Shown here: positions 254 through 40,384 of the stretch, piece by piece
Position numbering within the stretch: the stretch's first letter is position 1
How the letters are laid out: each line of letters starts with the position of its first letter
Source of the DNA: Eledone cirrhosa
Lineage: Eukaryota
NCBI GenBank assembly: GCA_964016885.1
Contig: OZ024750.1
Coordinates: 5,890,001-5,954,000, forward strand
DNA length: 64,000 nt
Direction of reading: 5' to 3'
The notes under the pieces: generated by a model
What the model was told of the DNA's origin: nothing
Database searches by the model: none
What the model saw: only the letters and a program-made list of their open reading frames with translations
Translations under genes and position numbers: made by a program

Positions 254-350
254 GGAGTCTGACGAGCCGTGGATTACAGAGTCTGGCTAGATCGATACAG
301 ATCGAACCTTGAGCTGATCAGTGGCAAAACGCGCGTCACCATCCAATAAA
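254..350 (+). ncRNA. Degenerate type I hammerhead ribozyme with long stem II, in a TA-embedded Penelope-like module (about 232-494)
   Basis: GGAGT-CTGACGA(259-265)-GCCGT...GTGGC-AAAA(G12>A)-CGCGCG-TC-ACCATCC, then AATAAA at 345-350. Confidence 0.6.
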
Positions 351-567
351 CGTAATGAAGGAGTAACCACTTGTCCTTGTTTTATTTTACTATAATACAC
401 TCTGTCTAGCTCTACACCTCGACACTGAAGTGAACCTAAACATCGAGTGCTCACCCGAGTGAACCTACAGTAACTCACCGTTACACCCTCTGGATATATA
501 TATATATATATATATATATATATATATATATATATATATATATATATATATATATATATATAGATGA

Positions 568-616
568 GATTCTGTAGGACTAGAACTGTTTCATTCTTTA
601 GAAATCATCAGGAATC
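568..616 (-). ncRNA. Degenerate type I hammerhead ribozyme between (TA)n tracts
   Basis: Minus strand GATTC-CTGATGA-TTTCTAAAGAAT-GAAA-CAGTTCTAGTCCTACA-GAATC; same family as 24250-24300; stem III is mutated. Confidence 0.55.
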
Positions 617-1713
617 ACACATATATATATATATATATATATATATATATATATATATATATATATTTCTCGGATAACGAATCATCCATATACTAACCTA
701 TTCTATTGTTTTTCTCATGGTCAGTCATGATAGAGTTGAACGATGGTGAAAATAATTCCAGCCATGATAATATCCTCTTTCATCAGGAGGGTAACCTTCC
801 TATTGCACTAATTTGAGGAAGGTTTAGCTGGAATGTCTACCCAACGTTTTATCTATCTACCTATCTAGCTGTTTGTTTTAAAGCCTTTTAAAATATTTAT
901 TTAAAAACCATCCATCACAATTTTAGTTAATATTCTAAACACCTGTTAAACGATGAGAAAGTTAGTGATTATATGAAATCTCTCCAAATTCTTGATTGTG
1001 TTCAAAATGATCTGAAAATTATAGACAGAGCTTTTCTTAGGAAATATAGTAATGAAAGGGTTAAAATGAATAGCCAGCCAAGTTGATCTTAGAAGCGTAA
1101 AACTCCACTCTACCTAAAGCCATTCTTATTTCAGCTATGATTTTAATACATATTCCATGGGTGGAGGGAGCGTCGTAGATTGAGAGATAACTTGCCAAGT
1201 ATTTGAGTCCATAGGAGAGTTTTAATTCCCGAATGAATCAAATTAACTTCCTTTCTATCACTTAAGGCTTGAAAATTATAACTATTCCTCTTCCTTATAA
1301 ATCTTGTGTCTAAATAAGAAGTAAATATATCATACTGTAAATTTCAACAAGCAACCTAATTCCTTTCTCTTGTTCGAATTAAATTTTGACCGTAGGTTAA
1401 GATTGCCTGAGAATGTGAAGAACTGACAATCTATTGTGTGAAGAGTCAGCTGTATTCACATTTCAAACTGCAGTAAAGGTAATTTCCGGCCATATTTGAA
1501 ACTCTTATTGATATTCCTTTATCTTACAGTCAAAAATAATCAAATGAGTATTTGTCGTAAGATATGGTATATTCATTACCCATATCTTTGCCAATAATTT
1601 TCTCATTATATCGTCTGCACTTTTAATAATGAAACTTTGAATGTGATAGAGATGATAATGTAAGTAGCGCATCATACTGTCAAAGAAACTGATATTTTTT
1701 ATTATCATTATTT

Positions 1714-1906
1714 AGTGAATTGGCAGTATCAGTAGAGCGTTAGACACCATGCTTTACAGCATAGAGTTATGGCCCTTTACGTTCTGAGTTCAAATCCCAT
1801 CGAGGTTAACTTTGCCTTTCCTCCTTACGGGGTCGATAAAATAAAGTACCAGTAATGCACTGGGATAATTGCTGGCCTTGTGCCAAAAGTAGAAACAATT
1901 ATTATT
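1714..1906 (+). mobile_element. tRNA-derived SINE family A (resembles Octopus OR-type SINEs), near full length
   Basis: A-box-like TGGCAGTATCAGTAGAGCG, B-box GAGTTCAAATCC, core GGGGTCGATAAAATAAAGTACCAGT, (ATT)n tail; more than 15 related copies in the window. Confidence 0.85.
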
Positions 1907-3043
1907 CCTAAATTCTGATGTCAAATCCCAACAAGGTCGATATTGATTTTAATTCCTCCATATCCAATAAAGTATTTACTAGTATCATATTGTAGTAGAT
2001 CATTCGAGTATGTTCCCTCATCTCGCTATAATAGCATTTCTGTAGAAGAAATAAATCAATATCTTTGACTTTATACAACGAACCCTTAACGCTGTAGAAA
2101 TCTATATTTTTTAGCTTATCATTTAACCAACTACTAATGTCAAGACAATTCTATTTAAAGAATTAATTTTATTATTATTTTGGCAGGAGAGGGAAGAGAT
2201 GAAATCTATATAAAAATATCTATGATTTGTATCTGCACGAAAATTTATGTTTACAAAAACACTGAATGTTCTTTCATTTTATTTTTCCTATGCCAAGACT
2301 GCTTATCCTTTTCATAGACAAACAGCAGATCGATTGCGAAATCAATAATCAAATAGCAGCAGTATATCTTCTGAACATCAATGCAACCTTTGAGAAATGA
2401 GCTGCCATTTTCGTCTCTTCAACAGTTGTTTAAGAGCCGGAGTTGGGAGGGATTTATTTTACAGACACTAATGTATTGGCCTCTGCTTCAACTCCTCGTG
2501 TATCCAATGTATGAGTCACGCCGGGTTATTTGTACAGGCAGAACAAGCGGATAAAATCTTGTTTGAAACGAATGAGTTGAGTAAAAGTTGATAAAATAGC
2601 GAAATGATCTTAAATATTTTCTTTATAGCGAACTTAGATACACCTTTCACCAGTAGAGTATGACATCGTGACAGTTATGTGCAGATATTTTTTATGGTGC
2701 TAGTTCAATTGTATTATTTACTGCTGTTGTAATGCATAGTAGTAGTAGAGATAGTAGTAGTAGTAGTAGTAGTAGTAATGATGGTAGTAATAGGAGTAGA
2801 AGTGGTGGTGGCAGTAGTAGTAGTAGTAGCCATAGAATCTGTTGTTGCTTCATAGGTCTAGATGATGGTGAGAAATATTAGAGGGAAAAGTGCTAGACGT
2901 ACCGTTGCTTTGGAATAGTAGTTTGTTTGGTACGTGTAGCAGAGAAAGAAAGATATAAAGTTATAAAAGAAAGACAAATACGAGAAAAGCCATAAGAAAT
3001 TGAATGAAAGAGGATTGAAAATAACTTTTAACCAGCAATATTA

Positions 3044-37199: not shown

Positions 37200-38775
37200 A
37201 TATATATATATATATATATATACATATATATGTATGTATATACATATATATATATATACATATATATGTATATATATGTATGTATATATATATACATATA
37301 TATGTATATATATATATACATATATATGTATGTATATATATGTATATATATATACATATATATATACATATATATGTATGTATATATATACATATATGTA
37401 TACGTATATATATACATATATGTATACATATATATGTATATATATATACATATATATATACATATATATGTATATATATATACATATATATATACATATA
37501 TACATATATATGTATATATATATACATATATATATACATATATATGTATATATATATACATATATATATACATATATATGTATATATATATACATATATA
37601 TATACATATATATGTATATATATATACATATATATATACATATATATGTATATATATATACATATATATATACATATATATGTATATATATATACATATA
37701 TATACATATATATATACATATATATGTATATATATATACATATATATATACATATATATGTATATATATATACATATATATATATGTATATATATATACA
37801 TATATATGTATATATATATACATATATATATGTATATATATATACATATATATATATGTATATATATATACATATATATATATGTATATATATATACATA
37901 TATATGTATATATATATACATATATATATATGTATATATATATACATATATATGTATATATATATACATATATATGTATATATATATACATATATATGTA
38001 TATATATATACATATATATATACATATATACATATATATATACATATTTATGTATATATATATACATATATATATATGTATATATATATACATATATATG
38101 TATATATATATACATATATATATATACATATATATATACATATATATGTATATATATATACATATACATATATATGTATATATATATACATATATATATA
38201 TACATATATATATATATATATATATATATGTATGTATATACATATATATATATATATATATACATATATATATATATATATATACATATATATATATACA
38301 TATATATATATATATATGTATGTATATACATATATATATATATATATATATGTATGTATATATATACATATATATACATATATATATGTATGTATATATA
38401 TACATATATATATACATATATATGTATGTATATATATATACATATATATACATACATATATATGTATGTATATATACATATATATACATATATATGTATG
38501 TATATATACATATATATACATATATATGTATGTATATATACATATATATACATATATATGTATGTATATATATACATATATATGTATATATATATATATA
38601 TACACATACATATATGTATGTATATGTATATATTTATGTATATATTTATATATATTTATATATATATATTTACACACACATACATACACATACATACATA
38701 CATACATATACATACATACATACATACATATACATACATACATACATACATATATATACATATGTATATGTATGT
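37200..38775. repeat. About 1.6 kb TA/CA/TG microsatellite
   Basis: Direct inspection. Confidence 0.95.
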
Positions 38776-39394
38776 ATGCAATTCACTGCCTTGTCAGAAT
38801 ATTCTCTTATCGTCTGGAACAAGGAGCGGTTTCAATTTGTCGGATAATGAAATTTGAGTGTTTTTTTCTCTAATTGCTCTGAGGATTGCAAGGGTCACTG
38901 CGGAGTTTGCAATCATTTCGGTAACTGGAATAAACCAATTCCTTTTGTTCAAATGTTGTTTATTGAAATACGTGTTTCGTTTTCTTGAAATTAATGTGAT
39001 TTTTTAATGCATACCTCTTCTCGATGTTTTATTAATTTATTTGAAGCAAATCGATTATTTTAAAGTTAATAACCTTACTATGCATGTCTACACTACCGCC
39101 ATGTGCTCTGTATGATGCACCGTTTTACAATTTACTATAGATATTTACGAGAAGTGAAAGAGTTTCTACATGGTCAATAGACTATATAGATTTCTCTCGT
39201 TACCAAATCCCTCTCAAATCGTAACACCCCCTCTGAGAGAGCAAAAAAAAAACAAAAAAAAAACAAAAAAAAAACTCAGATTGTGGAGTCCGAGATAAAA
39301 TATGCCTGAAAATATAGGATTGTCAAGTTTCCAATGATTTAGATCATACATCTACTCAATCAAGGATGTCTGGTGAGTAAATATCATCATCATC

Positions 39395-39960
39395 ATCGAT
39401 AAAATAAAGTACCAGTAAGGCACTGGGGTCGATTTAGTCAACTTTCCTCTCCCCCAAAACTGTTGACCTTGGGCCTTAACTTGAAAAGGGCGGTGAATTG
39501 GCAGTATCGGTAGAAGATCGGACGCCATGCTTTGACGCATAGAGTTAGGGCCCTTGCCATTCTGAGTTCAAATCCCGCCGAGGTTACCTTTGCTTTTTAT
39601 CCTTACGGGGTCGATAAAATAAAGTACCAATAATGTACTGGGTGATTGCTGGCTTTGTGCCTAAAATAGAATCAATTATATGTATTGTCAATTATATGCA
39701 TTATATGTATTGTCAATTGCGGATATGAAGAATATTGTTAAGTTGCATATTTGTACAAATAGTGATAATAATTGTTTCTACTTTTGGCACAAGGCCAGCA
39801 ATTATCCCAGTGCATTACTGGTACTTTATTTTATCGACCCCGTAAGGATGAAAGGCAAAGTTAACCTCGGCGGGATTTGAACTCAGATCATAAAGGGCCG
39901 TAAGTCTATTCTACAAAGCATGGCGTCCGACTCTCTACCGATACTACCAATTCACCGCCC
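39395..39960. mobile_element. SINE A cluster: partial (+), full (+, 39487-39678) and full (-, 39765-39960)
   Basis: GGGCGGTGAATTGGCAGTATCGGTAGA head at 39487 and its reverse complement ending at 39960. Confidence 0.85.
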
Positions 39961-40096
39961 TTTGATAATAAAATAATAAAAATAAAAAGGGGAAGAAAAA
40001 TTAATTTTCACATACATGTTCATTCAGAGAAGAGAGTTCATTTCTCTGTCCATCCTTCTCTGTTAATGGCTTGGTTGTGACTATATATATATATAT

Positions 40097-40384
40097 AATT
40101 GGTGTGGGATGCTTAAAGCGTCCGTAAGCGGTAGAGCATTTGAGCACTCGGTGCTCTTACAGAGCAGAGTATAATATCACATAAGAAACGGAGAATCAGT
40201 GGTGCTACGAATAAAATTTATTAGACATATTACAATCGAGACATATCCGAGGATCTTGCGATTTCAGAGTCAGGTTTGATCATAGCATCGATCGTGCCTC
40301 GAGCTGGTCGCCAGAGAAACGATTGTAATATGTATAATAAATCTTATTCGTAGCACTAATGATTCTCCGTTTCTTATGTGATAT
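40097..40384. mobile_element. TA-embedded fold-back module (inverted arms within 40174-40384)
   Basis: ATATCACATAAGAAACGGAGAATCA vs TGATTCTCCGTTTCTTATGTGATAT. Confidence 0.8.
40241..40333 (+). ncRNA. Type I hammerhead fold with C4 core variant and long stem II
   Basis: ACATAT-CCGAGGA-TCTTGCGA...TCGCCAGA-GAAA-CGATTG-TA-ATATGT, then AATAAA. Confidence 0.7.

Follow-up and report, generated by a model that had tools for sequence, protein, structure and literature searches.

The window analysed here is a stretch of 64,000 nucleotides from the genome of Eledone cirrhosa (assembly GCA_964016885.1, contig OZ024750.1, positions 5,890,001 to 5,954,000 of the forward strand), and its subject is a group of short repeat modules that carry a type I hammerhead ribozyme motif with a long insert in stem II. 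The DNA is of animal type and appears to resemble that of octopuses, with a GC content mostly between 18 and 40%, 145 rows of tandem repeats, chiefly microsatellites, and many dispersed copies of a 200-bp repeat. A first-pass annotation had placed the insert in three modules and taken it for a conserved RNA domain. The sequences were confirmed at all three places, and a fourth, inverted copy was found besides. Judged from sequence, all four inserts sit in stem II of a type I hammerhead motif whose self-cleavage is putative.

Module 1 (235-493, forward strand) is a whole repeat copy, likely the 5'-truncated 3' end of a Penelope-like element, lying between two (TA)n runs (about 219-231 and 494-562); the depth of related contigs and reads starts near 235 and stops near 490, in agreement with these bounds. 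Its hammerhead (240-357, forward), drawn from the sequence and a duplex fold, comprises stem I (254-258/338-342), a predicted outer helix (240-245/352-357), the core (259-265 and 326-329), a palindromic stem III (329-336) and a putative cut site after C337, with AATAAA at 345-350. The 48-nt insert (272-319, forward) stands atop a 6-bp lower stem (266-271/320-325). In this genomic copy, core position G12 (326) is occupied by an A and stem I is damaged. A terminal triloop hairpin with a YGA loop (439-451, forward), four of whose five pairs form, lies 50 nt before the microsatellite.

The hammerhead of module 2 (13645-13740, forward) is the only one of the four with an intact core (13651-13657 and 13716-13719). 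It has a 6-bp stem I, a putative cut site after A13727, AATAAA at 13735-13740 and a 46-nt insert (13664-13709, forward), in which two otherwise kept pairs are broken and another fold is predicted; its terminal triloop hairpin (13826-13838, forward) lies 54 nt before a microsatellite. Next to it, on the reverse strand, is a truncated copy of module 2 (13456-13614; 75% identity by blastn over 159 nt) with several core changes and a 46-nt insert (13531-13576, reverse), located by pattern scan and covariance model. Module 3 (40241-40341, forward) combines a 6-bp stem I, a core with the single substitution U4C (40247-40253; GAAA at 40316-40319), a putative cut site after A40327, AATAAA at 40336-40341 and a 50-nt insert (40260-40309, forward), the best-folding of the four. 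It is preceded by an inverted, truncated arm (40100-40236, reverse) that holds the 3' flank only, with a terminal triloop hairpin at 40155-40143.

All four copies share one order: stem I, CUGANGA, 6-bp lower stem II, insert, GAAA, 2-bp stem III with a 4-nt loop, NUH and stem I again, followed in three of the four by AATAAA. Spacing is constant, with 11-12 nt from core to AGAGTC, 6 nt from insert to GAAA, and 60, 58, 58 and 62 nt between the core halves. In modules 1 and 2 the putative cut site falls about 155 nt from the element end, and the duplex fold allows stem I to be extended past an internal loop containing AATAAA. The pattern AGAGTC-N20-45-AGCTRRTC had four matches in the window, where 100 shuffles gave an expectation of 0.02, a significance overstated by the pattern having been drawn from these same copies; the fourth match (13571-13531, reverse) lies inside the inverted copy of module 2. 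A covariance model of the insert found only the four copies, its own training set, at E<1 in the window.

To compare the insert with its surroundings, we aligned the four copies, which represent three families and were picked by motif, and drew the regions after alignment. The basal insert was nearly as invariant as the core (16 of 30 columns and 8 of 13, respectively) and far more so than lower stem II (0 of 12), stem I (1 of 11), stem III (0 of 5) or the 3' flank (5 of 24), with 5 of 20 columns invariant in the apical insert. In pairwise comparison, the families agreed at 18-24 of 30 positions of the basal insert, compared with 2-6 of 12 for lower stem II and 9-13 of 23-24 for the flank. The proposal of a conserved RNA domain in stem II is borne out to this extent: the alignment makes the insert a sequence-conserved extension of stem II common to three otherwise diverged families.

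Covariation gave a different answer. Four of the six pairs of lower stem II and two of the five of stem I changed on both sides among the four sequences. By contrast, none of the 11 pairs drawn in the insert did so; two changed on one side, seven never varied and two were broken in forward module 2. Thus, the insert is more conserved than its neighbours, as had been suggested, but shows no internal covariation, so that its fold rests on complementarity and prediction. The whole structure was 89.6% paired, compared with 27-39% when partners were slid, a figure to be read with the structure having been derived from those same sequences.

In the predicted model, the upper arm would form a rod of short helices interrupted by small internal loops. 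The segments AGAGTC and AGCTG, described earlier as facing each other in an internal loop, do so as a 2x1 loop of the minimum-energy stem II fold in modules 1 and 3, but do not pair with each other in forward module 2, which favours another hairpin formed within the 3' half (0.95). In the inverted copy the rod nearly ties with the minimum (−10.1 versus −10.4 kcal/mol).

The family of module 1 was also followed in four sequencing runs compared with window positions 215-490 at 80% likeness, in which summed depth is not a copy number. In run X1, which may come from the source of the window itself, 6589 contigs matched the region. Their summed depth rose from 6,382 at 255-264 to 434,494 at 305-314, fell to 38,672 at 385-394, reached a second peak near 250,000 at 435-454 and ended by 490. 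The element of module 1 is therefore highly abundant, extends over about 235-490 and contains two blocks that are widely shared; where depth is low, over the 5' strand of the insert, the cause may be truncation or divergence of subfamilies. Organism C yielded four matching contigs, of which three, deep and short, cover 302-337, that is, the 3' strand of the insert and the core. Opposite strands were joined in 12 of the 15 joints considered, a further seven standing outside this count. Stem III is palindromic in module 1, and the read consensus holds a second palindrome.

The variants considered, 40 of 138 rows, were pooled, without linkage; run X7 consists of reduced-representation data from few loci. 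At 326, G accounted for 96% of the depth in X1 and for 938 of 1129 reads in X7, which makes the core of the family canonical at G12. U4C made up 13% of the X1 depth and 140 of 314 X7 reads. Its recurrence in insert-bearing families, in that of module 1 (259-265) and at 40247-40253, suggests that a source element with a U4C core was amplified. In lower stem II, 268T (267 of 435 X7 reads) together with 323A (547 of 1175) would swap a C-G for a U-A pair, and the variants 271T and 321A mend pairs. The four variable positions in the insert among the rows considered (276, 284, 287 and 288) are all unpaired in the predicted rod (hand-computed P of about 0.025 for four of four among 20 unpaired of 48).

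What the modules are is suggested by their surroundings. Microsatellite flanks, 5' truncation, adjacent inverted copies, a hammerhead with a short palindromic stem III and high copy number all argue that they are, very probably, 5'-truncated ends (pseudo-long terminal repeat (pseudo-LTR) remnants) of Penelope-like retrotransposons. The first three are the described anatomy of Penelope-like insertions (PMC8557442), and hammerheads with a short palindromic stem III are known from the same elements (PMC4209133). Penelope-like ends would explain most of the anatomy of the modules. The window holds 204 stop-to-stop frames of at least 55 amino acids, and in the 142 scanned, after omission of 8 satellite duplicates and the 54 shortest, no Pfam family scored above the cut-off. 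As these frames gave no parent open reading frame (ORF), the modules are tied to no parent element and assigned to no clade.

The flanks of the insert-bearing modules had been described as different. That view needs amending, as the 3' flanks of modules 1 and 2 align weakly (nhmmer E between 2e-4 and 3e-3) and the modules have the terminal triloop hairpin in common. Its pattern (RYAY/GTRC, loop YGA), again drawn from the copies, matched five times against 0.56 expected. The five matches belong to module 1 (439-451, forward), module 2 (13826-13838, forward), the inverted arm of module 3 (40155-40143, reverse), a family at 24048 (24024-24012, reverse) and a family with a short stem II at 24190-24343 (24332-24343, forward). 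All five lie in hammerhead-type modules, 50-59 nt from a microsatellite, and a C-G to U-A change is seen in two. The hairpin is a candidate recognition site for the reverse transcriptase, and a likelier one than the arm. Its place recalls the stem-loop at which reverse transcription starts in the element of the anole (PMC11167929).

A link had also been proposed between the insert and the family at 24048 and 37141 through the word TTGAGCT. The 7-mer is indeed present at 24080 (reverse) in one element end (23965-24186, reverse) and at 37167 (forward) in a short copy between TA runs (37141-37198, forward), but it occurs seven times in the window against 5.1 expected, and the insert model gave no match there at E<=5. 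The 5' hammerhead half was not seen in the 24048 family. Its kinship with the modules is suggested by AGTC, 26 nt before TTGAGCT in the 37141 copy, and by the terminal hairpin of the 24048 copy, the TTGAGCT link itself being weak.

Further hammerheads were noted in the window. The short-stem-II family is represented at 563-613 (reverse) and 24190-24320, opens with a U.U mismatch and forms a head-to-head palindrome in the 24190 copy. Two type I hammerheads that lack the insert, at 15339-15385 (forward) and 51620-51666 (reverse), have intact cores whose halves are 26-31 nt apart; each lies in a short element adjoining TA runs. Near-perfect palindromes at 43148-43359, 50949-51304 and 53223-53510 have arms with a hammerhead 3' half (GAAAC, a short palindrome and AATAAA) and are likely inverted truncated insertions of further families.

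The minimal hammerheads in pseudo-LTRs of metazoan Penelope-like elements (Cervera and de la Pena 2014, PMC4209133) are among the closest known systems. They share with the modules the type I order, the CUGANGA/GAAA core, a stem I of 5-6 bp, a 2-bp stem III with a short, often palindromic loop, a long basal stem II, an A-rich 3' flank (with AAUAAA in several), dispersed truncated copies and pairs on opposite strands. The representative motifs of that paper have loops of less than 10 nt, whereas 58-62 nt separate the core halves here and the extra part is conserved in sequence; moreover, U4C is common here and no ORF is attached in this window. The published descriptor allows 3-7 bp for stem II and 3-10 nt for loop 2 (PMC4209133 supplement), and arms of this length escape both it and Rfam. 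Local Rfam scans of the three modules at E<=10 returned no hammerhead, selenocysteine insertion sequence (SECIS) element or other fitting family; the long arm falls outside the models. A scan of the whole window gave 367 matches, the best 150 of which were all microRNA-type hairpins on microsatellites or palindromes.

The Poseidon element of the green anole (Frangieh et al. 2024, PMC11167929) likewise has a hammerhead upstream of a stem-loop near its end, comparably placed to our triloop hairpin, and AT-rich insertion DNA. In contrast to the modules, its description includes no long stem II arm; the anole stem-loop is AC-rich and experimentally mapped, while the role of the hairpin here is deduced from its place, and no conserved start codon occurs here at stem II. 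The Hydra and Naiad clades (Craig et al. 2021, PMC8557442) show the same (TA)n preference, 5' truncation and inverted copies, and include cephalopod members. In eight Naiads the core halves are 35-50 nt apart; loop 2 measures 3-10 nt in the Hydra clade, and two plant elements of the same table, marked as deviating, have 29-35 nt. We compared the modules by eye with the 3' ends of five cephalopod Naiad consensuses and found them unlike, and Hydra-1_Obim has a short loop and no terminal hairpin (both PMC8557442 supplement). Words from the insert and hairpin had no matching context among the occurrences listed from this supplement, where line breaks can hide words. Non-LTR retrozymes (PMC7229834; bioRxiv 10.64898/2026.07.22.740005) are also short, non-coding, high-copy and probably Penelope-derived, with a type I hammerhead, but they are head-to-tail tandems, whereas the copies here are solo or inverted; no head-to-tail tandem hammerhead array was found within the window. 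Penelope-like type I hammerheads are thus known, and what sets the modules apart is the conserved 46-50-nt arm of stem II; no description of a conserved stem II domain in animal hammerheads was found in the literature searched, with Repbase and Dfam outside the comparison and a prior description therefore possible.

Taken together, these observations are best explained, with odds a little short of even, by modules that are likely 5'-truncated Penelope-like ends, in which a conserved stem II arm probably tunes a weak, likely dimer-dependent type I hammerhead. That the insert has been under selection as a folded RNA is itself probable; granted this and the Penelope-like origin, the chances that the arm acts on the ribozyme are evenly balanced. 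The lower six pairs of stem II would need only to pair, and so covary, while the letters of the upper arm would be fixed because a partner reads them; it is this difference, fixed letters beside a stem that merely pairs and covaries, that points to a reader. Such a partner would be a protein, or else the internal loop, rich in A, of the extended stem I. The latter holds AATAAA 5-8 nt behind the cut site, so that cutting would remove the polyadenylation signal from the upstream RNA and the arm might, speculatively, bias transcripts between cutting and polyadenylation. We picture the arm as an accessory folding or protein-binding module that would help to fold or control the ribozyme, because the minimal hammerheads of metazoans cleave slowly and are believed to depend on dimers and helpers (PMC4209133), and that of the anole element cuts only with the element's protein (PMC11167929). 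Tertiary contacts outside the core have been suggested to offset U4C-type cores (PMC3088659); the U4C cores here may fit such compensation, and equally relaxed selection. The four genomic copies themselves are probably dead relics.

Several results weigh against this explanation. None of the insert pairs changes on both sides, just three families (four copies) can be aligned, and all of them were selected by motif. The RNAalifold consensus is the 3'-half hairpin instead of the rod, prediction in full context gives the rod in module 3 only, and five of the six segments have weak z-scores for folding (−0.6 to −1.7), the arm of module 3 with its lower stem reaching −2.7. Three of the four genomic copies have damaged cores, and neither reverse transcriptase nor GIY-YIG was found in the 142 of 204 frames scanned. 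Stem II is short in a related family that also has the terminal hairpin (24190-24343), a lineage for which the arm is thus dispensable. In the reads, 269T (191 of 435 X7 reads) would break a lower stem II pair unless 322 changes too, the variant-free stretch 289-320 is not significant (P 0.08), and the variants considered are 40 of the 138. Finally, anole templates cut back to +20, with most of stem II gone, still insert, and ribozyme mutants leave insertion in vitro unimpaired (PMC11167929).

Fixed letters without covariation suit other readers as well. The arm could be a conserved RNA signal that is merely hosted in stem II and has nothing to do with cutting, serving instead for binding of the element's own protein, export, packaging or translation. 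Protein recognition would leave just such letters, the anole ORF starts at stem II with a protein-binding region within the first 172 nt from there (PMC11167929), and frequent U4C cores suggest that cutting may matter little. We nevertheless consider this rather unlikely, as the sister family is mobile without an arm, anole insertion can do without most of stem II (PMC11167929), and the constant distance from the insert to either core half is in keeping with a geometric link to the ribozyme. Alternatively, the insert might have no special function and look conserved only because one ancestor gained a hairpin in loop II or because families recently exchanged the segment by template switching; this would account for the small number of families, the lack of covariation in the insert, the fold lost in forward module 2 and the sister families without an arm. 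It is unlikely, however, in view of conservation that is patchy and structured (16 of 30 columns in the basal part, 5 of 20 in the apical, none of 12 in the adjoining stem), of variants that fall at unpaired places and of the high-depth matches in organism C, confined to 302-337 (three short contigs of four), although that stretch also holds the core.

If the invariant letters were instead read in DNA, as transcription-factor sites of an internal promoter in the pseudo-LTR, their lack of covariation would be expected, and pseudo-LTRs of Penelope-like elements typically hold promoters (PMC6765202). Yet the invariant blocks are nested reverse complements stacked on a covarying stem and the A and B boxes of RNA polymerase III are not common to the copies, which makes a DNA signal very unlikely. 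We put at the same low level a two-state switch, in which the invariant GA(U) and (A)UC segments would have two ways to pair: the long rod, which is compatible with an active core, and the 3'-half hairpin, which opens upper stem II. All four copies are able to form this hairpin, on which RNAalifold also settles; it prevails in module 2 (0.95) and comes close to a tie in the inverted copy (−9.9 versus −10.1 kcal/mol), and dual pairing would suppress covariation. In modules 1 and 3, however, the rod is better by 5.6 and 9.3 kcal/mol, respectively, and segments that amount to 2-3 nt of a self-complementary word find alternative partners cheaply. A kink-turn register might be a further state. The 3-nt bulge followed by G.A and A.G pairs (PMC4382518) can be drawn in three of the four copies, but the canonical helix then has only 2 bp in three of four, and the fourth pair of the other helix is mismatched in all four, the family variant 276C breaking the pair after it. 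This register also loses the invariant GG/CC pairs.

Returning to an arm that tunes the ribozyme, its boldest form would make it a natural sensor domain, in which protein binding switches cleavage on or off just upstream of the polyadenylation signal and so decides between messenger RNA (mRNA) and cut transposition template. The binder could be the element's own protein or a host factor, for example an L7Ae-family protein at a latent kink-turn. We regard this as decidedly improbable, but if it were true, an abundant animal retrotransposon would choose between mRNA and cut template by means of an allosteric ribozyme. If, on the other hand, the arm has no effect on cutting, the finding becomes a lineage-specific detail of a known repeat. 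Nearly all Penelope-like elements have hammerheads, which by themselves are slow and, in the only in vitro system, are not needed for insertion (PMC4209133, PMC11167929). A lineage in which a 50-nt arm is apparently constrained, next to sisters that have none, offers a ready comparison with and without the arm. An abundant class of hammerheads in animals is overlooked by Rfam and by descriptors that limit loop 2 to 10 nt.

Other classes of element were examined for the insert and rejected. A SECIS element has RUGA on its 5' strand facing GA and lies in the 3' untranslated region of an ORF that recodes UGA; no exact RTGA occurred on the sense strand of any of the four stem II arms, and there was no Rfam match. 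A type 2 promoter of RNA polymerase III, as in the head of a tRNA-derived short interspersed nuclear element (SINE), combines an A box and a B box of known consensus; a sense A-like box was present in one copy of four and an exact B-like box in one of four, the boxes not being common to the copies. Coding conservation was discarded because modules 1 and 2 keep no single frame through the insert. In public collections, the insert pattern matched 21 viral, 38 metagenome and 27 prokaryote-genome sequences, none of which (0 of 86) scored at E<=1 with the covariance model; by script, the viral and metagenome matches lacked hammerhead stems, and a stricter viral pattern gave none. These collections hold little animal DNA and set no bound on the spread of the insert among animals.

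The window contains further repeats. Long palindromes without a detected hammerhead half lie at 27757-28135, 51755-52035, 42750-42888 and 7345-7722 and account for some of the top microRNA-like Rfam matches. The 200-bp repeat is SINE-like, is found at 39765-39978 and many other places, and often forms inverted pairs (39485-39963 and 48206-48616). A separate repeat at 1-233 and 32347-32564, with 86% identity between copies, resembles the 3' end of a long interspersed nuclear element, and module 1 lies in the TA run behind it. Homogeneous minisatellites, with 96-99% matches, occupy 44213-45284, 41655-41932 and 43754-44166 and have units of 79, 55 and 22 bp, respectively.

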